From contig JBHLRP010000001.1 in NCBI GenBank assembly GCA_048882485.1, forward strand, positions 32,001-96,000: DNA of 64,000 bases, given 5' to 3'. Shown here piece after piece: positions 39,931 through 55,897 of this stretch. Source of the stretch: Candidatus Thorarchaeota archaeon. Lineage in GTDB: Archaea; Asgardarchaeota; Thorarchaeia; Thorarchaeales; Thorarchaeaceae. The notes beneath the pieces are model-generated. The model was not told where the DNA came from. It saw only the letters and a program-made list of their open reading frames with translations, and did no database searches. How positions within the stretch are numbered: the stretch's first letter is position 1; every line of letters begins with the position of its first letter. Position numbers and translations under genes: made by a program.

Positions 39931-40200
39931 TGGAATGCCGCCTGCGTGTCTTCTTTGTTGAAGCTTCTAAGCACGCTGCCCCTCCAATGATTCATTTATA
40001 TTACAATTGGTAATTTATATCCACCTTTTTGTTTCTTTTATTATTTTTGTGAAATTATCGAATTCATGGTGCTATGAGCTAGATAATTGGCAACCCGATA
40101 AAGCATGGAATTGATAGCTAAGCCTTCTCGCTAGGTTTTTATGGAGCATGATTCCACGACCGTGACCTGAGAGCAGCTTCGTCTCTTGGAGAGAGTCCAC

Positions 40201-42141
40201 ATGACACTGAAGCCAAAGCTAGTGACGGAACTCGCTGAGGTCTATGAAGACCGCGTGATCACAGAGAAGCATGAGCTCGTAATCCATGGCATGGATGTTG
40301 GTTCTTTGCCCAAACAAGTGGGCTGGTTGATGAACGTCAAGCCTGACGCGATTGTGCAACCCACAACCCCTGAAGAGATTAAGTACCTGTACGAGTTTGC
40401 AAACAAGTACAAGGTGCCTCTTGTGCCCCGGGGCGCCGGAACCTCAGGCTATGGTGGTGCTATTCCTCGTAAGGGTGGCATCATTGTCGATATGCGCATC
40501 ATGAATAAGATCGTGGAAATTGACGAGGAGAATATGACCGTCACCGTTGAACCCGGACTCTCTTGGGCGAACCTGCAATTCGAGCTAAACCGCAAGAACT
40601 TCGATTTGCGCTGCTATCCCTCCTCTGGACTCTCAGCAACCATCGGTGGATGGGTTGCACAGGGCGGCGATGGAATTGGCTCTCTCAAATATGGAAACAT
40701 CAACAAGAACGTTGTCGCTTTTGAGGTAGTCTTGCCTAATGGCAAGGTCGTCAAGAGCAAGGACTGTGACCTGTTCTGCGACACCGAGGGCATACTCGGA
40801 ATAATCACAAAGGTCACCCTGAAGATTAAGCCTCTCACACCGATTAAGGTAATTGTGTCAAGTTTCCCTGAGAATTATCTGATGGTCCATGCCATTGAGA
40901 AGATACTCGAAGATGGCCCTCTTCCATTCACGATTAAGTTTGAAGAGTCCAAATACACTGACTTGAAGAAGAAGATCTGGGACAGTGAAGAGAGGTTCCC
41001 ATTCCCTGTTCATCACGGCAGCATTATGGTTGCATACGATGGAGATGAAGAGGAGATTGCAGAAGGCTTCAGAGTTGTTGAAGAAGTCACGGAGATGTAC
41101 AAGGGAACTGTCTACGATGAGCATGTCGCTGCTCACGAGTGGCATGACCGCTTCTATCCAATGCGAGTCAAGAAGGCTGGTCCCACCCTCGTCGTTGGCC
41201 AAGCATTTGCTCCCCTCGAGAACCTCACAGCAATACTGGATGATTGGCAATTTGAACAGGGATCTGCGCAAGCTGGCATTGACGGCTATGTTAACTCACC
41301 AAATGCCGTCACTATGATGGGCTATTTCCTCGAAGATGAGCGCCGTAGGTTCTTCATGTTATCATGGGCTCAGAGCTTTGTTGTTTTCAAGATTGCACAA
41401 AGGCACGGCGGCCACGCACACTCAACGGGAATCTGGTTTGCTAACCAAGCTAGTCAATACTTTGGAAAACAGCGATTGGCAAAGATTCGTGCAGCCAAGC
41501 TCAAGTACGACAAAAAGGAGATATCAAACCCTGGGAAAGTGTTCGCCTACTGGCTACCCCTCATTCTCAAGTTTGGTAAGTATTTCCTATGGATATTCTA
41601 TGACCTATTCAGGAATGGATTTGGCAGAATCGCTCCAATACTTCTAAAGTGGCTCCAGAACCTCCCACCACTCAAGTGGATGCTGCGGTGGGGCCGAGCG
41701 CATAGTCCCTGGCCAGTGCAATATGGATTAGGATGTTGCATGGTCGATGGTGCAGCTGGAATCGCGTCACGATGGGACTTTGAACGATTCGGGATGCTCC
41801 CGCTCTTTGGGCCGAGACAGTGTGATGTGCTATGGATATCTGGGTCTCTAACAAAGAAGATGGCTCCGCGACTGCGAAGAGTCTATGAGATGATGCCAGA
41901 CCCCAAGTTCGTCATCGCCTTCGGACAGTGTGCAGCCAGTGGGGGAGTCTTTTGGGACGGATACTCCTTGCAGGTACCACCTGAGTCTGTAGTCCCTGTC
42001 GACGTTTACCTGCCCGGCTGTCCTCCGAAGCCATCTGACTTCATCAGGGCTCATCTGATACTTCAGAACAAGATTCGTGCAGGCACGACACACTGGCAGC
42101 TGAAGTATGAGAACCAGGACGCAATGGGGATGATCCAATGA
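40201..42141 (+). CDS. nuoB: Fusion of FAD-linked oxidoreductase (copy 5) and complex I subunit NuoB
   Basis: N-terminal LVPRGAGTSGYGG, YPSSGLSATIGGWV, WHDRFYP, NPGK; C-terminal SPWPVQYGLGCC, PRQCD, FGQCAASGG, VDVYLPGCPP; no internal stop. Confidence 0.92.
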   Translation: MTLKPKLVTELAEVYEDRVITEKHELVIHGMDVGSLPKQVGWLMNVKPDAIVQPTTPEEIKYLYEFANKYKVPLVPRGAGTSGYGGAIPRKGGIIVDMRIMNKIVEIDEENMTVTVEPGLSWANLQFELNRKNFDLRCYPSSGLSATIGGWVAQGGDGIGSLKYGNINKNVVAFEVVLPNGKVVKSKDCDLFCDTEGILGIITKVTLKIKPLTPIKVIVSSFPENYLMVHAIEKILEDGPLPFTIKFEESKYTDLKKKIWDSEERFPFPVHHGSIMVAYDGDEEEIAEGFRVVEEVTEMYKGTVYDEHVAAHEWHDRFYPMRVKKAGPTLVVGQAFAPLENLTAILDDWQFEQGSAQAGIDGYVNSPNAVTMMGYFLEDERRRFFMLSWAQSFVVFKIAQRHGGHAHSTGIWFANQASQYFGKQRLAKIRAAKLKYDKKEISNPGKVFAYWLPLILKFGKYFLWIFYDLFRNGFGRIAPILLKWLQNLPPLKWMLRWGRAHSPWPVQYGLGCCMVDGAAGIASRWDFERFGMLPLFGPRQCDVLWISGSLTKKMAPRLRRVYEMMPDPKFVIAFGQCAASGGVFWDGYSLQVPPESVVPVDVYLPGCPPKPSDFIRAHLILQNKIRAGTTHWQLKYENQDAMGMIQ

Positions 42142-43454: not shown

Positions 43455-43913
43455 TTGCAGACAGATAGGCTGTTTCTCCAATTCATCCCAGTCTTAGTGT
43501 GGGCCATTCTTGTAATTGTCCTAATTGTGATCATGCTGTTGGCATCATGGGTTCTGCGGCCCCATATACTGCAGAACTCTGAGAAGACATCTACATATGA
43601 ATGTGGAGAGGAGCCAATAGGGCCAGCAAGAATGTCATTTCCCTATAGTTACATCATCTACACAGTTCTCTTCGTCATCATAGATGTAATGGGCGCATTT
43701 CTCTGGCTGCTTTCTGTATCCCCGCTACGGTTGAACCCAGTAGTCGCTTGGCAGACATTCATCTTTGTAGTGATTATCATGGGTGCAATTGGATACGCAA
43801 TGAGATATCTGCCTCAAGCCTCACTTGATGGTAAGGAAACTCTGGAGGCATATCGCGCTGCGAAAGCGAGACATCTTGAGAAACCACGCCACCCAGGGAG
43901 GGAGCATAACTAA
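43455..43913 (+). CDS. nuoA: Complex I-like subunit A
   Basis: KTSTYECGEEP, LFVIIDV; RBS ggagg; TTG start. Confidence 0.92.
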   Translation: MQTDRLFLQFIPVLVWAILVIVLIVIMLLASWVLRPHILQNSEKTSTYECGEEPIGPARMSFPYSYIIYTVLFVIIDVMGAFLWLLSVSPLRLNPVVAWQTFIFVVIIMGAIGYAMRYLPQASLDGKETLEAYRAAKARHLEKPRHPGREHN

Positions 43914-44587
43914 TGCAAGGATTTGAGTCCACTTTCGAGTCAGTGGAGTTTCTGTTGATTGCAGGAATTGTAATTGTTCTAGCTTACCTCGCTCTGGAAC
44001 ATAGAGAGATCGTCTATGCTGCATTCTTCTTTGGATTCATGGCGTCGTTTGTAGCAGGATTCTTCCTTTTGTTGGAAGCGCCTTTTGTTGCTGGTATGCA
44101 GATTGCGGTGTATACTGGAGGCATAAGTGCGTTGATCATATTTGGTGTGCTCCTACTACCAAGAGCACAAGACTCCACACTCGAGTCAATTGAGTCGCCC
44201 CGTGCAAAGAAGGTTGGCATCCTTGTATCTAGCTCCATAATGTTTCTCTCTGCAATTCTAGCTCTGACCTTCCCATGGAGTGAAACAATTCCAGAAGGCA
44301 CAATAGACGCTTCAAACAACGTTGCTCTTCTCGCTGAGTGGCTCTGGGGTGATCACGGAATCTACGTTCAGATCATTGCACTCATCATTGTGACATCTCT
44401 CGTGGGTGTCATCGTACTCATGAAGATGGATAAGGCAGAACTGATGAAGGGTATAGTTGCTGAGTTTGGCATCGAAGCAGCACCAGAACCTAAAGAGCCT
44501 GAGCCTGAGCCAGAAGAGTCTCCGGAGCCTGAGGAGACCCCGGAAGTAACTCCTGAGGCGGAAGTCAGTGAGGAGGTGACTGACTAA
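43913..44587 (+). CDS. nuoJ: Complex I-like subunit J
   Basis: LLEAPFVAGMQIAVYTGGISALIIFGV; acidic tail. Confidence 0.9.
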   Translation: MQGFESTFESVEFLLIAGIVIVLAYLALEHREIVYAAFFFGFMASFVAGFFLLLEAPFVAGMQIAVYTGGISALIIFGVLLLPRAQDSTLESIESPRAKKVGILVSSSIMFLSAILALTFPWSETIPEGTIDASNNVALLAEWLWGDHGIYVQIIALIIVTSLVGVIVLMKMDKAELMKGIVAEFGIEAAPEPKEPEPEPEESPEPEETPEVTPEAEVSEEVTD

Positions 44588-44907
44588 TGGTCCCGCTTTC
44601 TTGGTATCTTGCTGTTGCATTCATCCTAATTGGCCTAGGAGCCTATGGAATGATGGTGAAGAGGAACCTCATTAGAATCCTGATCGGGGCGGAAATTATG
44701 GGGAACGGAGTTAGCATCGCTATAGCTGCTTTTGCGGTCTACAGCCCTACCTTTACGCTGACAGGACAGGCTCTCATCATTCTCATGATATCAGTTGCCG
44801 CAGCTCACACTGCTTTAGCCTTGGTTTTGATGCTTGCTTACAATAGGCGGCATGGAACAGTGGACCTGGGAAGACCAATCTCACAGGAGGATAAGATCGA
44901 TGTCTGA
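44587..44907 (+). CDS. nuoK: Complex I-like subunit K
   Basis: KRNLIRILIGAEIMGNG, GQ....VAAAH. Confidence 0.92.
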   Translation: MVPLSWYLAVAFILIGLGAYGMMVKRNLIRILIGAEIMGNGVSIAIAAFAVYSPTFTLTGQALIILMISVAAAHTALALVLMLAYNRRHGTVDLGRPISQEDKIDV

Positions 44908-45421
44908 AGGTGCTCCGATGTCTGGTGCCACATTTGGTAGGCAGATTGTCAGCAAGTTTCCTGGTGTTGAATGTACTCCAAAGGAAGATGGTATCCTTGA
45001 GTGCATGGTACCAGCGGACAAAATCAGAGATGTTGTTGGGATGATTGACGAGCAGATTGATGATGCATTTCCAGAGAGCGTTTTTGGAGTTGACCTTCAA
45101 GAAGACAAGTATGAGGTCATCTACATTTTCTGGTCGCGAGCCAATAGAACTCAATATCACCTTCGAGTTTCACTTGAGGGTACCAATCCCGAGGTGGATA
45201 CAATCTGTGATATTTTCCCAGGCATGGAGTGGCATGAGAGAGAAACCTGGGAGATGTTTGGAATCACCTTCAAAGGACATCCTGACCTCCGGCTTTTGTT
45301 GCTTCCTGAGGAGCTCGAAGGGAAATATCCTCTGAGGAAGAGCTTCGTGACAGATAGGGCACGGCTCGAGGAGGCCGACAGAACGCCTCCAAAGACGCCA
45401 GAAGGAGGTGCGACTGAATGA
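44900..45421 (+). CDS. nuoC: Complex I-like subunit C
   Basis: WHERETWEMFGITFKGHPDLRLLLLP...PLRK; start 44900 after ggagg. Confidence 0.93.
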   Translation: MSEGAPMSGATFGRQIVSKFPGVECTPKEDGILECMVPADKIRDVVGMIDEQIDDAFPESVFGVDLQEDKYEVIYIFWSRANRTQYHLRVSLEGTNPEVDTICDIFPGMEWHERETWEMFGITFKGHPDLRLLLLPEELEGKYPLRKSFVTDRARLEEADRTPPKTPEGGATE

Positions 45422-46554
45422 GCCCTGACATTCTAGACGAAACAACCGAGGTCTGGTTCGGACCTCAGCACGTATCCGCACACGGATGGGCAGCTAGGCT
45501 TACACTCGTTGGAGACTTTGTAGTAGAATGCGATCCTAACGCAGGATATTTCCATCGATCAGCTGAGAAGTGCTTGGAGTTCAGGAACTTTAGGCAAGGG
45601 TCTCTCATCATGGAACGGCTCTGCATGCTTGAGGCATTTCTGGCTGAGTATCCTTACATCATGGCGGTTGAGAAGATTGCAGGACTAGAGGTACCTGAAC
45701 GAGCTAAGGTCATGCGAACCATCATGATGGAGGCTAGCCGAATACATTCATTGCAGTTCTGGTGGGGTCAGTTCTCAGCTGAACTTGGGCTTTTTGCGAT
45801 GTTGCTATGGCCCTGGGTCGACCGAGAGTTCTTCCTCGATACTTTCGAGGAACTCAGCGGGTCCCGTCATGCTGTCTCCTATAGTACACCCGGCGGTGTG
45901 AAGTACGACTTCACAGACAAGGTGCTCAAGAAGCTCGACATTGCCTTGGAGCGGTTTGAAGACCGAATGCCTACAATGCGTGATATGCTCATGGGCAGTC
46001 CCACTTTCCGAGCAAGGACAGAGAGCATTGGTCAATACACCTTGAAGCAAGGTCTGAAGTTTGGTCTAAGCGGTCCGCCAATCAAGGCATGTGGTCTGCC
46101 AATGGATCTACGAAAAGATGCCCCTGACCCGAATCTTGCCTACGATATGATTGATTGGGAAGTTCCAATTACTGAGAGCGAAGAACACCCCGGAGAGAGT
46201 GATGCCTACGACAGAATGGTCCAGCGATTCAAGGAGATGGAGACCTCAGTAGAGATAATTCGGAAATTGCTACCTTTAGTTCCTGACGGCCCCATTGTTG
46301 ATCCTAAGGCTCGAGCCAAGGCCAATAGGCTTCCAGAGGGTGAAGCCTACGGCCGTGTTGAGGGGACAAGAGGAATCTCAACCCTCTGGCTTAAGACTAC
46401 TGAAAAGGCGCAGACTCCTTACAGGGCCAAGATACGTGGTCCCTGTTTCAATTCTTACTACTCACTGAAGCATTTGGTTCCGGGTGCGAAGTTTGCAGAC
46501 TTCATTGTCGTTTTCGGATCGCTTGATCCGTATCCAGGGTGGTGGGATCGCTGA
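45418..46554 (+). CDS. nuoD: Complex I-like subunit D (no [NiFe] ligand set)
   Basis: FGPQHVSAHG, GYFHRSAEK, ERLCMLE, VEGTRG, PYRAKIR, SLDPYPGWWDR. Confidence 0.92.
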   Translation: MSPDILDETTEVWFGPQHVSAHGWAARLTLVGDFVVECDPNAGYFHRSAEKCLEFRNFRQGSLIMERLCMLEAFLAEYPYIMAVEKIAGLEVPERAKVMRTIMMEASRIHSLQFWWGQFSAELGLFAMLLWPWVDREFFLDTFEELSGSRHAVSYSTPGGVKYDFTDKVLKKLDIALERFEDRMPTMRDMLMGSPTFRARTESIGQYTLKQGLKFGLSGPPIKACGLPMDLRKDAPDPNLAYDMIDWEVPITESEEHPGESDAYDRMVQRFKEMETSVEIIRKLLPLVPDGPIVDPKARAKANRLPEGEAYGRVEGTRGISTLWLKTTEKAQTPYRAKIRGPCFNSYYSLKHLVPGAKFADFIVVFGSLDPYPGWWDR

Positions 46555-46565
46555 TGGGAGGTGTC

Positions 46566-47699
46566 ATGTTGCAGATAGATTTCTTTGCATGGCTTCAAGG
46601 AATCCCTCAATGGCTATATGGAGTCATTCAGTGGTTGTTCGACATTGTCAGTGGAATCTTCTACTGGATATGGGGCATCTTCACATGGATTTGGGCAGCT
46701 CTATTCGATGTAGCCAACTTCTTCTTCCTAATTCGAGCAGTGCTATTCCCAGGTCTTGTCTTCATTCTCATGACAATCATCTTTGCTGTTTGGTATACGC
46801 GCAAGCTCTGGGGCAGAATTCAAGACAGGCGTGGTCCATTTCACTTGGGTAAGTACGGAGGACTTCAACTCTTCGCTGATGCGATTAAGCTCGTAGGAAA
46901 GGAAACCATAATCCCTGACAAGGCGAAACGCTGGATGTATCGGTTCCTTCCATCACTATTGCTGTTGGTTGTCTTAATCCCATTTGCGTTCATCCCATGG
47001 GATCCAATTTGGTACATTGCTGATTTATCGGTCGGTCTAGTGCTAGTCTTCGCATTTCTAACTGCAGTGCCCATAGTAGCATTGCTATCTGGTTGGATAA
47101 GTGGGTCCAAGTATACACTCATAGGTGGTTTCAGAGCAGCTAATAATCAGTTTGCTTGTGAGATTCCATTAATCATCTCATCAGTAGGCCCGGCGATGCT
47201 GGCTGGTTCTTTGAGTGTGATGGGAATCGCAATGGCTCAAACAAATGTCTGGTTCATATTCCTTCTACCAATCAATGTAGCCACATTCCTTGTGGCCGCG
47301 ATAGGCTCTGTGGGAACCTTTCCATTTGATGCTCCTGTGGCTGACTCGGAGGTTATCTTTGGCTGGAGGACAGAGTTCAGTGGCATCTACTTCACACTAA
47401 CCTATTTCGCAGAGTTTGCTGAGCAGGCTCTCTATTCAGCACTCATTGTTGCACTGTTCCTTGGTGGGTTCCATGGACCGGCTTTCTTGCCAGGAAGCGT
47501 GATATTCATCATCAAGTTCCTGATAGTATTCTTCTTCTTCGTCGTTGTGACGTCATCGTTCCATCGGCTAAGACAAGACCAGATTGTGTACTTCTGCTGG
47601 AAGTATCTACTTCCATTGTCAATACTGAATGTTGTGCTTGTGATGTTGGGAATAGCCAACATCCCCTTGCTACAAGCAGTTCTTGGAATAGGAGGGTAG
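46566..47699 (+). CDS. nuoH: Complex I-like subunit H
   Basis: RKLWGRIQDRRGP, GGLQLFADAIKL.GKE, SKYTLIGGFR, PFDAPVADSE, EFSG; start after ggaggtg. Confidence 0.93.
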   Translation: MLQIDFFAWLQGIPQWLYGVIQWLFDIVSGIFYWIWGIFTWIWAALFDVANFFFLIRAVLFPGLVFILMTIIFAVWYTRKLWGRIQDRRGPFHLGKYGGLQLFADAIKLVGKETIIPDKAKRWMYRFLPSLLLLVVLIPFAFIPWDPIWYIADLSVGLVLVFAFLTAVPIVALLSGWISGSKYTLIGGFRAANNQFACEIPLIISSVGPAMLAGSLSVMGIAMAQTNVWFIFLLPINVATFLVAAIGSVGTFPFDAPVADSEVIFGWRTEFSGIYFTLTYFAEFAEQALYSALIVALFLGGFHGPAFLPGSVIFIIKFLIVFFFFVVVTSSFHRLRQDQIVYFCWKYLLPLSILNVVLVMLGIANIPLLQAVLGIGG

Positions 47700-47705
47700 A
47701 GCAAG

Positions 47706-48137
47706 ATGGGATTCTTCAGAAATCTAGGTGACATATTCCAGATATTGAGACACGTATTCCGTCAGGTGATGTCCCGTCCATTCACGTACTTCTATCCATT
47801 TGAGGACAGGGAATATCCAGAGAGGACTCGTGGAAGGCATATCTTTGTGCGTGAGAATTGCACATCATGCATGCAGTGTGTGCGGGCTTGTCCTGTTGTC
47901 GCTATTAGCATCGATAAGAGTGACAAGCATTTCGAGAAAGACGCCGCTCTATACTTTGACTATACGCGGTGCATATTCTGTGGACTATGCGTTCAAGCCT
48001 GCAGGTTTGATGCTTTGTTTCACACTCAGGTTGTTGATATCAGCGAAGGAGAGAGGGAGGACTTGCTCTATGGTCCTGACAAGATAGAAACTCTCGATCG
48101 AGACCCGCTTGAGTGGCGTGGAAGGAGGTTCCGTTGA
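47706..48137 (+). CDS. nuoI: Complex I-like subunit I (2x[4Fe-4S])
   Basis: YPFE..RGRH, CTSCMQCVRACP, CIFCGLCVQAC. Confidence 0.95.
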   Translation: MGFFRNLGDIFQILRHVFRQVMSRPFTYFYPFEDREYPERTRGRHIFVRENCTSCMQCVRACPVVAISIDKSDKHFEKDAALYFDYTRCIFCGLCVQACRFDALFHTQVVDISEGEREDLLYGPDKIETLDRDPLEWRGRRFR

Positions 48138-49654
48138 TGCAACTAGCCTTCGAGTTCCCATTCATGACCTTGTCCTTGCTAGTCCTCTTCATTGGAGGGC
48201 TCTTGATCTACCTCCTTCGCGGTCGACTCGAAAAGACATCAGGGAAAATTGCTGTTGGCTTCTCGGCGGTAAGCGCATTGCTAATGGTGCCTCCCTTCTA
48301 TCGTATCATGGTTGAAGGTGGTCGGGCTGCTGAGAAGGTCAGCTGGTCAGTTGTACTTGGAGAGTTTGGTCTCTACCTAGATGAGATTGCTTTTCCAATT
48401 ACATTCGCAGTTGTTGTCCTAGGATTCCTTTCGGTTATCTATGCTGTAGGCTATACTGAGCATACTGAGAATAAGCCCACTTTCTTTGCAAACACATTGT
48501 TCTTCATCATGGGCATGCAAGGCGTGACGCTTGCAACCAATTTGCTGGAATTCTTCATCTTTTGGGAGATCATGCTTGTCCCATCGTACTTCCTAATTCT
48601 GTTTTGGGGCTTGCCTGAAACCCGAAAACGAACTGCCATCAAGTTTTGGCTCTATACACAGGCTGGAGCGGTCTGTATTTTGATCGCCCTAGGTCTCTTG
48701 TACTTCTTCACAGGCACCTTTGAGCTCTACACAATTCTGGCAATGGCTCCTGCCATCTGGTCAGACCTCCGACTGCTGCAGATTATTTTCATCTTGTTCG
48801 CTGCTGGCTTCCTAGTCAAAATGGCGGCCTTCCCTCTGCATTGGTGGTTACCTCCAGTCCACGCCGAAGCTCCGACTCCTATATCGGTTCTGCTATCCGG
48901 AGCCATGATTGAAACCGGTGCTTATGCTCTCGTCCGTTTCGGAATCGTTACGCTTGGACCTGCAGCTGCCTCGCTCTCATTCTGGATTGGAGTACTTGGT
49001 GTTGCCACAATGTTCTACGGAGGAGCTATGGCGCTTGTACAGAAAGACATCAAGAGACTGCTGGCTTACTCATCAGTTTCCCAGATGGGCTATGTCCTCT
49101 TTGCCCTGGGCATGATTACCACATTCGGTGTAGCTGGCGGTCTGTTTCATCTCATCAATCATGCCTTCAGCAAGGGTGTCTTATTTATGACTGCTGGAGC
49201 CGTGATTCATCAGACTCATCTGAGGGATGTTGACAAGATGGGCGGTCTCTCAAACAAGATGCCCATCACTGCATTCGCTGCAGCTATCGGTGCAATGAGC
49301 ATTGCAGGGAGTCCTCCCCTCTCTGGATTCGCTAGTGAATGGATGATGTTTCTAGGGGGCTTTGATGCTGTTCTGATGGGACCAGGAGGTCTCGCCCGAC
49401 CTGAGTTCTTTTTCCTATCCATTTTGGCTGTATCAAGCTCCATTGTGAGTGCGGGCTACATGCTTCGGTATCTTTGGAAAGTCTTCCTTGGACCAAATCC
49501 AACAGAACTGGAGGATGTGAAAGAGAGTTCCAACTGGATGACTGCCCCAATGGTTGTCCTTGGTTTTCTCATAGTGTTGTTTGGAGTATTCCCAGGTTTG
49601 GCACTGGATGTCATTTTACCTGGTGTACAAGAAATAGCTACTCTGCTTCCATGA
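48137..49654 (+). CDS. nuoM: Antiporter-like subunit M, copy 1 (extra)
   Basis: FFIFWEIMLVPSYFLI..WG, KMAAFPLHWWLP.VHAEAPTP.SVLLSG, KRLLAYSSVSQMG. Confidence 0.85.
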   Translation: MQLAFEFPFMTLSLLVLFIGGLLIYLLRGRLEKTSGKIAVGFSAVSALLMVPPFYRIMVEGGRAAEKVSWSVVLGEFGLYLDEIAFPITFAVVVLGFLSVIYAVGYTEHTENKPTFFANTLFFIMGMQGVTLATNLLEFFIFWEIMLVPSYFLILFWGLPETRKRTAIKFWLYTQAGAVCILIALGLLYFFTGTFELYTILAMAPAIWSDLRLLQIIFILFAAGFLVKMAAFPLHWWLPPVHAEAPTPISVLLSGAMIETGAYALVRFGIVTLGPAAASLSFWIGVLGVATMFYGGAMALVQKDIKRLLAYSSVSQMGYVLFALGMITTFGVAGGLFHLINHAFSKGVLFMTAGAVIHQTHLRDVDKMGGLSNKMPITAFAAAIGAMSIAGSPPLSGFASEWMMFLGGFDAVLMGPGGLARPEFFFLSILAVSSSIVSAGYMLRYLWKVFLGPNPTELEDVKESSNWMTAPMVVLGFLIVLFGVFPGLALDVILPGVQEIATLLP

Positions 49655-49665
49655 GGTGATCGACA

Positions 49666-51984
49666 ATGTTGCTTGGACTACCCTATTGGCTTATCCTCGT
49701 CATTCCGCTGCTTGGCTCTCTCCTCGTTCCACTTGTTGGAAAATTCAGTGAGCGCGCGAGAGACTGGACCCCTGCAATCCTCATGGGAGCCTCTATGGTT
49801 CTATGCTGGTCGCTTCTACCTGAGATTGGAAACCCGACCCAGACCACGCACTGGATGTGGATTGAGGTCTTAGGACTCGAGTTCGAGGTTCTCCTGGACC
49901 CGCTCTCAGTTGTTATGGGGGTTCTAGCCAGCACTCTGTGTTTTCTCATCTATGTCTACTCTACAGAGTACATGGCTCATGAGGGCGATCGTGACCGCTT
50001 CTTCTTCCTCATGCTGGCATTCGGCGGTGGTATGCTGACGCTAGTGCTCAGCAACAACCTTCTGATTGCATTTATCGGATGGGAGATCATGGGATTTTGC
50101 TCCTATGGTTTGATAGGATTCTGGAATGACAAGAGGAACCCTCCCGAAACCGACCCATCAGACATTCACTCCACAAACCCGCTTCTTCAATTCAAGACCG
50201 AGGGACAGTACAACACCCACTGCGGGACCAAGGCATTCGTCGTCACGAGAATCGGTGATGCATTCATGTTGGGCGGTATCCTGATTCTGTTCGTCTTCAC
50301 TGGCACCTTTTCCTTCACTGAGATGGCGGCTGATGCCCAATCATGGTGGAGCACTATGGCAGGTATCGGGATGCTTGTGCCGACATTCCTACTCATCTTC
50401 ATGGGTGCAATCGGCAAGTCCGGACAGGCTCCACTGCAGGTCTGGTTGCCGGAAGCAATGGCTGGCCCGACAAGCGTTTCGGCTCTCATTCACGCTGCGA
50501 CGATGGTCAAGGCGGGTGTCTATATCACCGCTCGATTCCTGGTCACAATGGTGTCAGCAGCCGGTGGTGAGGGCAATGGTGGTGAACATATCGCTGGACT
50601 TCAGGCAATTGGTTTTGAAGCAGCGTTGACCTTTTTCATCTTTGTAGCAATCATCGGCGGTATTACTGCTCTCATGACAGCGACCATGGGAATGGTCTCA
50701 AACGAGCTCAAGCAGATACTGGCATTCTCAACACTCAGCCAGCTTGGATACATGATGCTCTCACTAGGTGTGGGCGGCGTCCTTCAGGCTGAGGGACTTC
50801 ACTTCACTGATGCATACTTGAGCGGTGTGATGCATGTGATATCGCATGGTGCATTCAAGGCCCTTCTATTCCTTGCATCAGGAGGTGTTATACACGCCGT
50901 CCATACCAAGTTCATCACCAAGATGGGCGGTCTGAAGCAATACATGCGGAAGACCTTCATCGTGATGTGGATTGGTGTGCTTGCCCTCGCAGGTATCCCA
51001 CCGTTCTCAGGGTTCTGGTCAAAGGACTCTATCATCGAGTATGCCTATGAATTGGCGGTTGAATGGCCAAATCCGATAGGTTGGATGCTATTCTTCTTTG
51101 CTGTCTTAGCCGCAGCCTGCACGATATTCTATAGCATTCGACTCATGGGCATCACTTTCTATGGACCTTCCAAGGAGAGTCATGACCATCACGAGTCACA
51201 CAGCTCACACGAGAATGAGGATTCAGAAGAGCCTGAAGACCTACATTATGATGGCTTAGAGGAAAATGAAGAATCTCATGATAGTGACTCAGAGAAGCAA
51301 GAAGAACCACATGACAACCACTCCGAAGAGCAGCATCACTCAACTCCTCAAGATCCGGGTCCGGCAATGATGGTGCCATTATATCTACTAGCGGCCTTTA
51401 CTGTCATTGCATTCCTTGTCTTCCCGTTTGTTCAGAACATTGTACTTGAAGAGAGTCACTCTTGGGCTGAGAACTTAGCGCACATGATAGAGGTCAAGCT
51501 GACCTACCCAGGAATTGTGCCTTTCATGATAACGCTAGGCGCGCTCGCCCTCGGCGGAGTTCCTGGATACATGATGTACATCAGGGGTGCTGACTCTCCC
51601 AATACTTGGGTGCCGGAGAAGGGCTTCCGAAGGAGATTTCACAATTTCCTAAAGCATCGCTGGTACATCAATGAATTCTACTATTGGATATTGAACAAAT
51701 TCCTGAGTGCGGCAGAGCGTTATCGAGTGAATGTTGACAACAAAATCATTGATGGCATCGACTTCAAGTCTGCTGACGCAGGGAAAGGTCTAGCAACGAA
51801 GCTGAAATGGTTTGATGATAATGTGGTTGATGGCTTTGCTGAGGGGGTTTCTACTTACAGTGTTGCAGCTTCAGAGTCCAGTCAGTCTGCACAGACTGGT
51901 CGAGTCAATGACTATGTGGGAGTGATAATGTTCGGGATTGGAATTCTGGTCATAATCGTTCTATTATCTCTGGGGGTGCTCTAG
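49666..51984 (+). CDS. nuoL: Antiporter-like subunit L with extended lateral helix and His/acidic loop
   Basis: GWEIMGFCSY.LIGFW, KSGQAPLQVWLPEAMAGPTSVSALIHAATMV, GFWSKD, QTGRVNDY. Confidence 0.95.
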   Translation: MLLGLPYWLILVIPLLGSLLVPLVGKFSERARDWTPAILMGASMVLCWSLLPEIGNPTQTTHWMWIEVLGLEFEVLLDPLSVVMGVLASTLCFLIYVYSTEYMAHEGDRDRFFFLMLAFGGGMLTLVLSNNLLIAFIGWEIMGFCSYGLIGFWNDKRNPPETDPSDIHSTNPLLQFKTEGQYNTHCGTKAFVVTRIGDAFMLGGILILFVFTGTFSFTEMAADAQSWWSTMAGIGMLVPTFLLIFMGAIGKSGQAPLQVWLPEAMAGPTSVSALIHAATMVKAGVYITARFLVTMVSAAGGEGNGGEHIAGLQAIGFEAALTFFIFVAIIGGITALMTATMGMVSNELKQILAFSTLSQLGYMMLSLGVGGVLQAEGLHFTDAYLSGVMHVISHGAFKALLFLASGGVIHAVHTKFITKMGGLKQYMRKTFIVMWIGVLALAGIPPFSGFWSKDSIIEYAYELAVEWPNPIGWMLFFFAVLAAACTIFYSIRLMGITFYGPSKESHDHHESHSSHENEDSEEPEDLHYDGLEENEESHDSDSEKQEEPHDNHSEEQHHSTPQDPGPAMMVPLYLLAAFTVIAFLVFPFVQNIVLEESHSWAENLAHMIEVKLTYPGIVPFMITLGALALGGVPGYMMYIRGADSPNTWVPEKGFRRRFHNFLKHRWYINEFYYWILNKFLSAAERYRVNVDNKIIDGIDFKSADAGKGLATKLKWFDDNVVDGFAEGVSTYSVAASESSQSAQTGRVNDYVGVIMFGIGILVIIVLLSLGVL

Positions 51985-51985
51985 A

Positions 51986-53530
51986 GTGCAGCTCGGATTC
52001 ATCCAAGACCTCATCGCAATGTTGCCAATGGACAATATACTACCACTGATGCTATTTGCTCCATTAGTCGCAGCATTCTTTGCCTACATACTCGGTGCAA
52101 GAGGGGGTAGGGCTCTCACGCTCATTGTCACATTCGTTGAACTCCTGCTTTCGCTTGTCCTCATTGTAGCAATTCTGCCGAATCCAGGAGCTATGTGGTT
52201 TGAATGGTCGTTCACACTTAGCGATGTGCAATTCGGGAGCTGGAATGCTCTCCTCCAGATATACCTAGGTGTTGACGGAATATCCGTTGCCATGGTGTTT
52301 CTTTCAAACCTCGTGGTCTTCATTGCAGCACTCAGTTCAAACCATATCAAGAAATCACAGCATCTGTACTACATGTTCTTCCTGATGCTCCAGACAGGTC
52401 TGCTTGGCGTATTCATGTCATTTGATCTGATCAGCTTCTTCATCTTCTGGGAATTGGTCTTGATACCGATGTTCTTCATAATAGGAAGATGGGGCGAAGA
52501 GGGATGTGAACACGCAGCTGTCAAGTTCTTCATCTACACACATCTCGGCTCAGCTGTGATGTTGGTCTCATTCATGGCACTGTTCTTCCTAGGACCCGGT
52601 ACATTCAACATGATTGCGATCAAGGCTGCACCAATTGCAATCAACATTCAGATTGGCTTTGCACTGGCTGTCTTTCTGGGGGCTGGCGTCAAGCTTCCTG
52701 TCTTTCCATTGCACAACTGGCTTCCGTGGGCCCACGTCAAGGCGCCAACTCCTGGTTCAGTGATACTCGCTGGAATACTCTTGAAGATGGGTGGATACGG
52801 GTTCATTAGACTGGGTCTTTGGATGGTTCCGCAAGGATTTGCTCGACTCAGTATCCCATTCGCTGTCCTCGCGGTCTTCACATGCATCTATGCAGCCTTT
52901 GTGGCAATGGGTCAGACTGACGTTAAGTCAATGGTAGCCTATACATCAATCAACCACATGGCATGGGTGTTGCTTGGAGTTGCCATCGGAGGATTTGCCA
53001 TCGGAGGTGGAGCCACAGAGGGCCAACTCTTCTCAGCCAGCCTTGCAGTTCAAGGCGCAGTATTCATGATGGTATCCCATGGGATGATATCCTCTGTCAT
53101 GTTCATTCTTGCCGGCCAGCTGAAGTACTCGGCTGGAAGCAGACTGATTCCTGATGTCATGGGTCTTATGACGAAAGCTCCTAGAATGTCCGCTGTCTTT
53201 ATCCTCGCGGTCTTTGCAGCCTTTGGGTTGCCCGGAATGAGCGGATTCATTGCAGAGGCCCTTGTACTGTTTGGGTCAGTGAACATCTACATATGGTCTG
53301 GCTTCATTGCATTTGGAATCTTTGTCACGGTAGGATATCTCCTTTGGACCCTGAACCGAATTGTGTTTAGTGATCCAGACCCTGAGAAGGAGGTCACTGA
53401 AGCACCATGGAGTGATCTCATTGCACCAATCTTGATGATGATACCAGTAATCATCCTCGGGCTTTGGCCAGATCTTGTGCTCAATCTAGTGATACCGATA
53501 GTCAACGATATGATAGGGGTGATTCCATAA
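51986..53530 (+). CDS. nuoM: Antiporter-like subunit M, copy 2
   Basis: LGVDGIS, FFIFWELVLIPMFFIIGRWG, KLPVFPLHNWLPWAHVKAPTPGSVILAGILLKMGGYG. Confidence 0.93.
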   Translation: MQLGFIQDLIAMLPMDNILPLMLFAPLVAAFFAYILGARGGRALTLIVTFVELLLSLVLIVAILPNPGAMWFEWSFTLSDVQFGSWNALLQIYLGVDGISVAMVFLSNLVVFIAALSSNHIKKSQHLYYMFFLMLQTGLLGVFMSFDLISFFIFWELVLIPMFFIIGRWGEEGCEHAAVKFFIYTHLGSAVMLVSFMALFFLGPGTFNMIAIKAAPIAINIQIGFALAVFLGAGVKLPVFPLHNWLPWAHVKAPTPGSVILAGILLKMGGYGFIRLGLWMVPQGFARLSIPFAVLAVFTCIYAAFVAMGQTDVKSMVAYTSINHMAWVLLGVAIGGFAIGGGATEGQLFSASLAVQGAVFMMVSHGMISSVMFILAGQLKYSAGSRLIPDVMGLMTKAPRMSAVFILAVFAAFGLPGMSGFIAEALVLFGSVNIYIWSGFIAFGIFVTVGYLLWTLNRIVFSDPDPEKEVTEAPWSDLIAPILMMIPVIILGLWPDLVLNLVIPIVNDMIGVIP

Positions 53531-55005
53531 TGCTACAGGTTTCCACAATAATCGATGCTATCAGCGACATCTTGAGTCCCTTCTTTGCACTAGTCCCAGC
53601 GGATTGGCTAGTATCATTACCAGCTTTGACGCTCATCCTATTCGGAATCTTGGCACTCATTGTAGGAATGAGAAGAAGTCCTTTGGCAGTCAGTTTCATT
53701 GGCATTGCCCTTGCAGGCTTTGAGATGATTCTCATTGACCCGGGTTCTTCCTTTGGAGGACTATTTGTAAGAGACATGTTTGGTGATTTCTTCATCTGGA
53801 TCATTCTGGTTGTCGCATTCATAATACTGCTTTCGTCGACGACATACGGTGGAAATAAGGGTACATACAACTTTCTCCTCATGATGTCATTTGCTGGCGC
53901 AATTTGGGTCGTTATGGCAACCGATCTTGTGGCGCTGTTTTTGGCATGGGAACTCATGAGTACGCCGACATATGTGCTTGTTGCGCTAGGGCCCCACAGA
54001 GGAGCTATTGATGGAGCTACCAAGTACTTCGTCATGGGACTCCTATCGTCAACTCTCATCCTATTTGGAATCGCGATTGTTTATGGTACAACAGGTGCCA
54101 CAAGCTTTGCCGCTGTTGCTGCATTTGTTAGTGTCGTCTGGAGCGCCGCTTCTCCGTCTGCCTACGCAATGCTTCTGTCCATGGTGCTGTTCCTGATCGG
54201 TTTTGGATTCAAGGTCGGTGTGTTCCCAGGATGGATGTGGGTCCCCGACGCATATGCAACTGCTGACGGAAGCGTCACAGGATATCTGGCCGGTGCAACC
54301 AAGAAGACAGGTGTAAGTGCCCTCCTTCGGATACTACTCGTTGCATTTGTTGCAGCACAAATGGAATGGATGCCTGTCGTAGTCACTATCTCGATTCTTT
54401 CCATGATCATTGGGAATATTCTTGCACTCGCTCAGCGCAACATCATGAGAATGTTAGCCTTCTCATCCATCATGATGATGGGTCTACTCTTCGTGGGGAT
54501 TGCAGCCGGAACGGCCTTTGGAGCAGCAGCTGCGATGTTTACCGCGTTTGCCCATGCACTCATCAAGACGGGCGCGTTTATCCTGGTTTGGGCATTGGCT
54601 GTTTCCATTGGAAAAGAGGTCACATATGATGATTTGAAAGGACTCAGTACTCGTGCTCCGATTGTTGCTCTATTGATGGCAATAATGGTCTTTGCTCTAG
54701 CAGGCGCACCATTCACAGCAGGATTCTGGTTCAAGTGGTTTCTATTGCCTGGAGCTGCAGTCGATGCTGGGCTTTGGTGGTTGGCGATAATTGCTGTGCT
54801 GAACTCAGTATTTGCACTTGGCTATTACTTGAGAATCCTAAGGTATTGCTACTTCATGGAACCAACAGAAGGTACAACATTACGCATACCGACGATTCCT
54901 CTTGTTGCGGTGCTACTTGCAGTTGTGGGTACAATAATGATTGGCGTCTTTCCGGGTCTAATCCTGGACTATGCATCGTTGGCAGCTGGAGTCCTCGTCC
55001 CATAG
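53530..55005 (+). CDS. nuoN: Antiporter-like subunit N
   Basis: LAWELMS..YVL, ATKYFVMG, GFKVGVFP.WMWVPDAY, GNILALAQ.N..RMLAFSS, YYLRI. Confidence 0.92.
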   Translation: MLQVSTIIDAISDILSPFFALVPADWLVSLPALTLILFGILALIVGMRRSPLAVSFIGIALAGFEMILIDPGSSFGGLFVRDMFGDFFIWIILVVAFIILLSSTTYGGNKGTYNFLLMMSFAGAIWVVMATDLVALFLAWELMSTPTYVLVALGPHRGAIDGATKYFVMGLLSSTLILFGIAIVYGTTGATSFAAVAAFVSVVWSAASPSAYAMLLSMVLFLIGFGFKVGVFPGWMWVPDAYATADGSVTGYLAGATKKTGVSALLRILLVAFVAAQMEWMPVVVTISILSMIIGNILALAQRNIMRMLAFSSIMMMGLLFVGIAAGTAFGAAAAMFTAFAHALIKTGAFILVWALAVSIGKEVTYDDLKGLSTRAPIVALLMAIMVFALAGAPFTAGFWFKWFLLPGAAVDAGLWWLAIIAVLNSVFALGYYLRILRYCYFMEPTEGTTLRIPTIPLVAVLLAVVGTIMIGVFPGLILDYASLAAGVLVP

Positions 55006-55211: not shown

Positions 55212-55763
55212 TCATTCAATTGGTCTGTCACTGTATTTTCTCACTGCCGAGCCAATGAGGTCAGTGAATAGGGCTTCAATATTCTCCCCTGTTTTTGCAC
55301 TGGTTTCAACATGAGTGACATCAAGCCAATCACTTAGCATTTGTCCTGCTTCAGGGGGTACCCGTCTATCCTTCAAGTCAATTTTGTTGGCCACTATTGT
55401 CACTGTAGCATTGGGATTCACTGACATGAAATTCGAATACCAATCATATACATGAAGAAACGACCTGGGATTTGTCACATCATAGACAATGAAGGCAATA
55501 CTGGCTCCAGCCATATATCGCAGCCTAAGCTCCTTGAAATCTGGTTGCCCGCCAAGGTCCCATAGAACAATCTGTACAGGCACAGTCATCTCTTCTGTCA
55601 GGGCAACTTGAAGATTCTTGACCGCTATGTTTGTCCCCATAGTTGCCTGGTACGACTCACCAAAGCTATTCTCAGTATATCGGATTATACAGCTTGTCTT
55701 ACCTGAAGCCGCGTCACCTAGGCTAACCATTTTGAACATATAACGCGGTATGCTTCTTGACAA
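55212..55763 (-). CDS. Rab/Ras-like small GTPase (Asgard-type eukaryotic signature protein)
   Basis: G1 GDAASGKT, G2 ATMG, G3 WDLGGQ, G4 NKID, G5 ETSAK; no CAAX; TTG start after ggaaggag. Confidence 0.92.
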   Translation of the reverse strand: MSRSIPRYMFKMVSLGDAASGKTSCIIRYTENSFGESYQATMGTNIAVKNLQVALTEEMTVPVQIVLWDLGGQPDFKELRLRYMAGASIAFIVYDVTNPRSFLHVYDWYSNFMSVNPNATVTIVANKIDLKDRRVPPEAGQMLSDWLDVTHVETSAKTGENIEALFTDLIGSAVRKYSDRPIE

Positions 55764-55897
55764 GCTAAACTCCTTCCCGGAATATCTCTCATTGATGACT
55801 AAGTCCAACATATAATCGCATTTCAGATATACAGATTGAAGTGACAACAAATCCGATAATCATGGTGGATCAAGAGTGCTTCTATCCCCAACAGACT

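Follow-up and report, generated by a model that had tools for sequence, protein, structure and literature searches.

A Thorarchaeota gene cassette for a probable four-pump complex I with a three-module NuoL lateral helix

Complex I homologs with a duplicated M-type antiporter subunit (2M complex I) have as their hallmark a conserved insertion of 26 amino acids (aa) in the lateral helix of NuoL (PMC9040806). For the bacterial enzymes of Nitrospira and other lineages, translocation of a fifth proton was proposed (Chadwick, Hemp, Fischer and Orphan 2018, ISME J 12:2668, as related in PMC9040806 and PMC7300363). Among archaea, a 'clade 2' 2M complex I occurs in heterotrophic marine Thaumarchaeota (PMC7300363) and a complex I with an additional M subunit in Candidatus (Ca.) Angelarchaeales (PMC9038741). 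Complex_I_3 of Ca. Manganitrophaceae contains five pumping subunits, with two MrpD-like subunits replacing NuoL, and NuoL insertions are also found in some Manganitrophaceae complexes without extra pumps (PMC9040806). The present analysis concerns a window of 64,000 nucleotides (nt) of a Thorarchaeota metagenome-assembled genome, in which a single cassette encodes a complex I together with four antiporter-like subunits, namely the two M-type proteins M1 and M2, NuoL and NuoN. Ca. Manganitrophaceae are, to our knowledge, the only group for which a complex I with five pumps has been described, and the work of Chadwick and colleagues reportedly made use of archaeal fosmids.

The cassette very probably encodes a NuoEFG-less ('headless') complex I with four antiporter-like pumps and a strap helix of three modules. 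In the window the extended helix and the fourth pump gene are both present and match each other and, judged from the sequence, every testable feature of a 2M complex I is found. As in the bacterial 2M enzymes, so far as the secondary accounts of them extend, a fourth M-type gene within the nuo cassette is accompanied by a NuoL insertion of ~26 aa. In contrast to those enzymes, the host is an Asgard archaeon, the cassette has no NuoEFG, NuoB is fused to a flavoenzyme, NuoD is without the quinone-binding tyrosine, and its two M subunits are distantly related paralogs, one of archaeal M-type and the other of canonical NuoM-type ancestry. The archaeal 2M complexes of Thaumarchaeota and Angelarchaeales display the same NuoEFG-less organization with a duplicated M. 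Complex_I_3 of Ca. Manganitrophaceae shows the same lengthening of the helix by 26 aa for its added pumps, whereas the window enzyme keeps NuoL, in one copy, among its four pumps; the Asgard cluster L050, described below, encodes a five-pump relative with a single NuoL. The canonical three-pump complex I of Escherichia coli (3rko, 7p61) and Thermus thermophilus (4hea) has the same subunit families, the same succession of transmembrane helix (TM) 15, lateral helix (HL) and TM16, and the same conserved charged positions in TM5, TM7, TM8 and TM12. Relative to it, the window enzyme has one more pump, a helix 29 residues longer than that of E. coli, and no NADH module. Archaeal 2M complexes had already been published (PMC7300363, PMC9038741) and are not new here. 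Among the papers searched, none describes such a complex from Thorarchaeota or any other Asgard group, and an Asgard preprint citing Chadwick reports Heimdallarchaeia complexes with fewer, not more, pumps. The four-pump design being already published, the gain lies in distribution and evolutionary detail and not in principle.

The cassette and its pump genes

The complex I cassette spans ~40.2-55.0 kb of the window on the + strand (Pfam and NCBIfam matches; all coordinates are window positions unless another cluster is named) and encodes together the core subunits A, B, C, D, H, I, J, K, L, M and N. A fusion of a flavin adenine dinucleotide (FAD)-linked oxidase with NuoB is followed by two small open reading frames (ORFs), by nuoA-J-K-C-D-H-I, and then by M1, L, M2 and N. 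The genes, with the matches that identify them, are as follows.

40186-42141, + strand: FAD-linked oxidase-NuoB fusion (Pfam FAD_binding_4, FAD-oxidase_C, and Oxidored_q6 at aa 531-622)
43455-43913, + strand: nuoA (Pfam Oxidored_q4)
43913-44587, + strand: nuoJ (Pfam Oxidored_q3)
44587-44907, + strand: nuoK (Pfam Oxidored_q2)
44834-45421, + strand: nuoC (Pfam, NCBIfam)
45418-46554, + strand: nuoD (Pfam, NCBIfam)
46539-47699, + strand: nuoH (Pfam, NCBIfam)
47706-48137, + strand: nuoI (Pfam, NCBIfam)
48137-49654, + strand: M1, archaeal-type M-like antiporter subunit (PF00361, 241 bits; TIGR01972 NuoM, 316 bits)
49666-51984, + strand: nuoL, 772 aa (PF00662 and PF00361; TIGR01974, 455 bits)
51986-53530, + strand: M2, canonical NuoM-type (TIGR01972, 412 bits)
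53530-55005, + strand: nuoN (TIGR01770, 281 bits)

The order nuoM-nuoL-nuoM-nuoN, read earlier at 48137-55005, is thus borne out by the Pfam and NCBIfam matches. The M1 ORF is open from a GTG at 48113, although the likely start is the ATG at 48137, which is preceded by GGAGG and overlaps the nuoI stop codon by 1 nt (TGATG). The start of nuoL lies 11 nt past the M1 stop with GAGGTGAT ahead of it, and M2 starts 1 nt past the nuoL stop. Similarly, the nuoN ORF is open from a TTG at 53464 and its likely start is the ATG at 53530, which overlaps the M2 stop by 1 nt (TAATG). The junctions of the pump genes are therefore 1-nt overlaps or gaps of 1-11 nt with Shine-Dalgarno-like sequences ahead, which points to one translationally coupled unit. 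Genome-wide, the PF00361 genes of the source assembly (3.96 Mb, 157 contigs, 90.5% complete) are exactly these four, and two of them exceed the TIGR01972 cut-off. NuoE, NuoF and NuoG are not within the cassette, and a search of the 90.5%-complete genome gave no match to the small Mrp subunits MnhB, MnhE and MnhG (PF04039, PF01899, PF03334).

The two small ORFs between the FAD-NuoB fusion and nuoA have no family matches. Directly downstream of nuoN, on the - strand, lies a gene for a Ras-family small GTPase (55212-55850), a kind of neighbour typical of Asgard genomes. The window holds no transfer RNA gene, and no Rfam or repeat feature relevant to the four-pump finding.

Helix length and pump number

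The C-terminal part of NuoL carries the elements listed below. The motif VDNKIIDG begins at 51733 (V690) and FDDNVVDG at 51811 (F716), 78 nt or 26 aa apart, as originally reported.

51163-51360, + strand: His/Asp/Glu-rich loop of NuoL, ~aa 500-565 (sequence; AlphaFold predicted local distance difference test score, pLDDT, <50 for 506-557)
51661-51900, + strand: lateral helix HL of NuoL, from W666 to the Q743-T744-G745 anchor (77 residues, three ~26-aa modules)
51733-51810, + strand: extra HL module V690-W715, opening with VDNKIIDG (the corresponding interval is missing in three-pump relatives)
51811-51888, + strand: last HL module F716-S741, opening with FDDNVVDG (corresponds to the single canonical D-x-x-V-I-D-G module)
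51898-51978, + strand: TM16 anchor helix of NuoL, aa 745-771 (AlphaFold helix)

Across 52 aligned Thorarchaeota NuoL sequences, residues D691, I695, D696, G697, D717 and D722 do not vary, so neither motif is a chance occurrence. In a PDB search the first motif aligns to 'VDYNVVDG' of cyanobacterial NdhF (6hum_F) and the second to 'VDDKAVDG' of Mycobacterium smegmatis NuoL (8e9g_L), and thus both copies match one canonical site; the last module aligns with 'VDDKAVDGTAGGL' of the M. smegmatis protein. The pair had been called an exact 26-aa duplication, which holds for the spacing and not for the sequence, the two units sharing 3/26 residues (D, D, G) in addition to I/V exchanges. With so few identical residues, the pair reads as an old duplication or the insertion of a module and not as a recent copy. 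An AlphaFold2 model of the window NuoL (52 sequences, mean pLDDT 72.5) predicts a short helix at 654-663, a continuous helix at 666-735 and TM16 at 745-771.

Helix length was taken as the number of residues between R-W-Y-x-N/D after TM15 (WGFD in E. coli) and Q-T-G before TM16, which gives 77 for the window and 48 for E. coli. The interval was compared across 34 loci from 301 sampled Asgard genomes and 80 named loci (species genomes scanned with an M1 profile), with genes called by similarity to the window proteins; the incomplete clusters L068, L078, L080, L125 and L144, which end at contig ends or contain a gene shorter than 400 aa, were not treated as exceptions. The helix measures 49-53 residues in 47 complete archaeal clusters with three pumps, a set that includes the hydrogenase-type clusters of Odin, Baldr, Heimdall and Jord archaea and the K-M-L-N clusters of Nitrosopumilaceae. 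The lengths expected to differ if the window NuoL were of the 2M kind, 77 against 49-53 in three-antiporter archaeal NuoL, are therefore not equal. All complete four-pump clusters sampled (19/19) have a helix of 76-78 residues and none a short one. The five-pump cluster L050, of another Asgard family, has a helix of 105 residues with four modules. The series of ~52, 78 and 104 corresponds to ~26 residues (~39 Å) per pump spanned.

In L050 (G122:C1, 5157-13289), five full-length PF00361 genes, in the order M, M, L, M, N, lie contiguously after nuoA-B-C-D-H-I-J-K, and only one of them is a NuoL. A TM5-TM6 loop that is 25 residues longer in Thorarchaeota NuoL, and touches M1 in the predicted complex, was considered as a four-pump signature and rejected, as it tracks lineage and not pump number. 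The acidic/His loop of ~65 residues between TM14 and TM15 is predicted to be disordered and varies across Thorarchaeota NuoL proteins of 725-844 aa; cyanobacterial NdhF (6hum_F) has a shorter His-rich stretch at the same site.

Predicted architecture and competing explanations

The window L, M1, M2 and N proteins were aligned to E. coli NuoL, NuoM and NuoN and compared at the charged positions of TM5, TM7, TM8 and TM12. NuoL carries E, K, H and K-D, with E140, K251, H276 and K453-D454 aligning with E. coli E144, K229, H254 and K399-D400. M2 displays E, K, K and E, the same set as E. coli NuoM, and the nuoN product E, K, K and K, the same as E. coli NuoN, while the set of M1 is E, K, E and E with the TM5 Glu, TM7 Lys and TM12 Glu strictly conserved. 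Thus the TM5 Glu and TM7 Lys are kept in 4/4 window pumps and each has a charged residue in TM12.

NuoB forms the C-terminal part of a protein of 651 aa whose N-terminus is a GlcD-like FAD-linked oxidase. The fusion is the only NuoB gene adjoining the cassette, 1.3 kb upstream of nuoA, and together with the downstream orf177 (177 aa) it is syntenic upstream of nuoA in many Thorarchaeota loci. The cysteines of cluster N2 are present in the NuoB part (GCC...GQCA...PGCPP) and NuoD keeps the quinone-site His (H22; E. coli NuoCD H224). The nickel-iron cysteine motifs RxCGxC and DPCxxC are missing from NuoD, which has ERLCMLE with one leftover Cys and a C-terminal DPYPGWWDR, and the complex is therefore not a hydrogenase. 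The motif ER(L/M)CMLE is kept in all Thorarchaeota loci, and neighbouring Asgard three-pump clusters carry ERxCGICS. Since NuoEFG is missing, the donor is probably ferredoxin, or electrons would enter through the flavoenzyme fused to NuoB; by analogy with headless Fpo/NDH-type complexes, the acceptor would be some lipophilic carrier.

NuoL would lie at the far end of the membrane arm, with its amphipathic lateral helix running back over the other pumps and anchored by TM16. Three modules of ~26 residues instead of two would add ~39 Å, roughly the width of one pump, and the lengthened helix would span M1, M2 and N, with M1 paired to L and M2 to N. When NuoL 1-485 and M1 were folded together, both as alignments, the interface score ipSAE was 0.64 against 0.00 for the best control, a level attained by 58/80 solved complexes and 2/110 mismatched pairs; the runs share at least 94% of contacts and the partner pLDDT is at least 79. 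The predicted interface sets TM12-14 of M1, including the E409 region, against TM5-6 of L, like M on L in solved enzymes, and would place M1 proximal to L, beneath the helix. The favourable score may reflect only the likeness of the pair to solved L/M complexes. From this fold and the trees described below, the order outward from the electron-transfer arm is most likely N, M2, M1, L. If the published 2M enzymes are a guide, the complex would translocate five ions for every two electrons instead of four, and the fifth would be affordable with a low-potential donor such as ferredoxin or the NuoB-fused flavoenzyme. The span from ferredoxin to menaquinone, ~0.4 V for two electrons, provides roughly 80 kJ/mol at standard potentials and, as each ion costs ~17 kJ/mol at ~180 mV, could pay for five ions; a span of the NADH-to-ubiquinone type is usually credited with four.

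Several observations weigh against the four-pump reading. Two clusters of one Asgard genus, L048 (G015:C47) and L049 (G054:C4), have helices of 78-79 residues with a duplicated D-x-x-I-I-D-G, and the genomes G015 and G054 (89% and 93% complete) encode only three PF00361 genes genome-wide, so a long helix is required for an extra pump yet does not prove that one lies beneath it. The lateral helix of the window NuoL is modelled with a pLDDT of only 50-70, falling below 50 at 698-703 and 727-748, and the subunit order leans on trees with few bacterial references. These two clusters, like the Manganitrophaceae complexes with NuoL insertions and no extra pumps (PMC9040806), would suit an explanation in which helix extension and M1 are unrelated, the helix holding something else or nothing and M1 residing elsewhere, for example distal to L, or being substoichiometric. 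Such a coincidence is improbable given that a helix longer by 26 residues accompanies 19/19 four-pump clusters, and one longer by ~52 the five-pump cluster, and that the predicted interface would set M1 proximal to L and under the helix. Still harder to credit is an assignment of M1 to an Mrp- or Mbh-like module apart from complex I, even though its scores against MrpA, HyfB and NuoL models nearly equal its NuoM score and M-type subunits from group-4 [NiFe]-hydrogenase clusters of Asgard archaea are among its nearest relatives. M1 sits between nuoI and nuoL, overlapping the nuoI stop codon, at a position constant in all Thorarchaeota loci examined; the genome, at its 90.5% completeness, yielded no MnhB, MnhE or MnhG and no further PF00361 gene, and the cassette NuoD has no NiFe cysteines. 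The absence of Mrp small subunits among the genes found and the place of M1 inside the cassette thus speak against a separate Mrp-like module for the first M copy. With the helix extension, its occurrence in 19/19 clusters, the coupled genes and the L-M1 fold, they lend good support to the earlier proposal that a single elongated membrane arm contains both M-type subunits.

Further points against a standard proton-pumping quinone reductase concern individual residues. The central Lys of TM8 is replaced in M1 by Glu (GAMIETGAY; 48861-48935). All Asgard four-pump clusters examined have this Glu in M1, and it also occurs in some M subunits from hydrogenase-type clusters of Asgard archaea. In NuoK, the residue aligned with E. 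coli E72 is a His (AAAH), and the E36 equivalent is kept. Both substitutions would fit an M1 that is built into the arm without being a normal proton pump, acting as a spacer or as a channel for another ion (Na+) with a stoichiometry other than 5 H+. This is unlikely, if less so than the two preceding alternatives: the TM5 Glu, TM7 Lys and TM12 Glu of M1 are strictly conserved, and the Glu in TM8, likewise conserved and carrying a charge, speaks for function and not for decay. The M1 Glu and the NuoK His thus read as conserved changes, and because of them coupling or ion specificity may differ from the canonical enzyme. In NuoD, Met70 occupies the position of E. coli NuoCD Tyr273 in all Thorarchaeota loci examined, so that of the canonical quinone-site set the His and the N2 cysteines are present and the Tyr is replaced. 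The enzyme may accordingly not be a standard quinone reductase, and its acceptor perhaps not a standard quinone.

The ~1.1-kb gaps between L and M in L048 and L049 were also considered as sites of a hidden membrane subunit outside PF00361; this was rejected, as the genes within the gaps are unrelated and not conserved, and one of them is encoded on the other strand.

Distribution, origin and significance

M1 and M2 are 27% identical and appear as old paralogs, so that a recent duplication of nuoM is not borne out. Trees were built with FastTree from the antiporter-like proteins of the fetched loci together with E. coli NuoL/M/N and HyfB/D/F, bacterial references being few. M2 groups with E. 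coli NuoM, whereas M1 groups with archaeal M-type subunits and not with E. coli NuoM. As regards an origin of the extra M by NuoM duplication, both are M-type and fall in different subclades. The tree neighbours of M1 include the sole M subunit of Nitrosopumilaceae as well as the M subunits from [NiFe]-hydrogenase clusters of Asgard archaea, in which the NuoD homologs have ERxCGICS; in a whole-library search its nearest relatives outside Thorarchaeota are from other Asgard archaea and Bathyarchaeia. The M2 proteins from all M1-L-M2-N clusters fall together in a single clade (local support 98) comprising Thorarchaeota, three other Asgard families, Bathyarchaeia (L078, L080, L098), Nitrososphaerota (L116, L146) and the five-pump L050. 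M2 is thus likely to have entered once, although the sampling of bacterial references is thin.

The cassette and both NuoL motifs are kept across the family, with 59/76 family genomes matching, and the position of M1 is conserved in every Thorarchaeota locus examined. Among the best 120 homologs of the NuoL C-terminus, identity is 55-89% and length 725-783 aa, and the named ones are almost always 'Candidatus Thorarchaeota'. The M1-L-M2-N order with a long helix is also found in other Asgard archaea, Bathyarchaeia and non-ammonia-oxidising Nitrososphaerota. The Nitrososphaerota clusters L116 and L146 and the Bathyarchaeia clusters L078 and L080 share the order, a helix of 78 and an M2 of the Thorarchaeota clade, while L and M1 of Thorarchaeota group with Asgard and not with TACK sequences. 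Differences seen in the Asgard versions are the A-J-K-C-D-H-I order, the FAD-NuoB fusion, the long acidic/His loop of NuoL and the TM8 Glu of M1. The arrangement had been proposed as either a further convergent origin in archaea or a transfer, and it is not a convergent invention specific to Thorarchaeota, being shared with these lineages through one M2 clade.

A NuoL tree computed with IQ-TREE after removal of the helix columns requires a minimum of 8 changes to account for the long-helix state, and the three-pump L, M and N of Nitrosopumilaceae nest among four-pump relatives. On these grounds the Thorarchaeota enzyme is seen as a member of a widespread archaeal M1-L-M2-N family in which helix modules have been gained and lost repeatedly. 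The ammonia-oxidising archaea sampled (L079-L112 and similar; Nitrosopumilaceae, Nitrososphaeraceae) have K-M-L-N clusters with a helix of 52-53 and a sole M of the M1 type. As their L, M and N nest among the four-pump relatives L116, L146 and Bathyarchaeia, this suggests that they lost M2 and one helix module. These clusters sit uneasily with the statement that Nitrososphaerales carry a duplicated M (PMC9038741).

The NuoL of L114 (Thermoprotei archaeon B15_G2), in a cluster cut by a contig end, has a helix of 103 residues with two exact 26-aa copies of TTAWYVEKALNLVQIGGSIALAKVLS, and that of L039 (G084) contains the two near-identical 26-aa units DNVIVDGVYRGLAWLAVKFSDFMYWF and DNTVVDGVYRGLAWLGVHLSNLFRRP. 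Both repeats are recent tandem duplications of the helix module. A broader scenario can be offered only tentatively and may well prove wrong: a mosaic of single origin, in which an archaeal distal pair of M1 and L, kin of the pumps of Asgard and TACK membrane hydrogenases, joined a proximal pair of canonical NuoM/NuoN type, and from which the three-pump enzyme of ammonia oxidisers (K-M1-L-N, helix 53) would derive by loss of M2 and one module. In the same tentative reading the lateral helix would be a modular ruler of ~26 residues per pump (52, 78, 104) growing by tandem duplication, for which the exact and near-exact copies of L114 and L039 and the five-pump, single-NuoL cluster L050 speak.

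In uncultured archaea, pump number could be predicted from helix length, a simple sequence read-out at ~26 residues for each pump but an imperfect one, because some lineages have a long helix without extra pump genes. Among known organisms Asgard archaea stand closest to eukaryotes, and there is debate over their energy metabolism. A four-pump complex I without an NADH module, and not only hydrogenase-like complexes, is encoded in Thorarchaeota as well as in several further Asgard lineages. A higher ratio of ions to electrons would be sensible only if the donor has a low potential or if the enzyme serves reverse electron flow, and the four-pump complex I thus represents a concrete, testable feature of Asgard bioenergetics.

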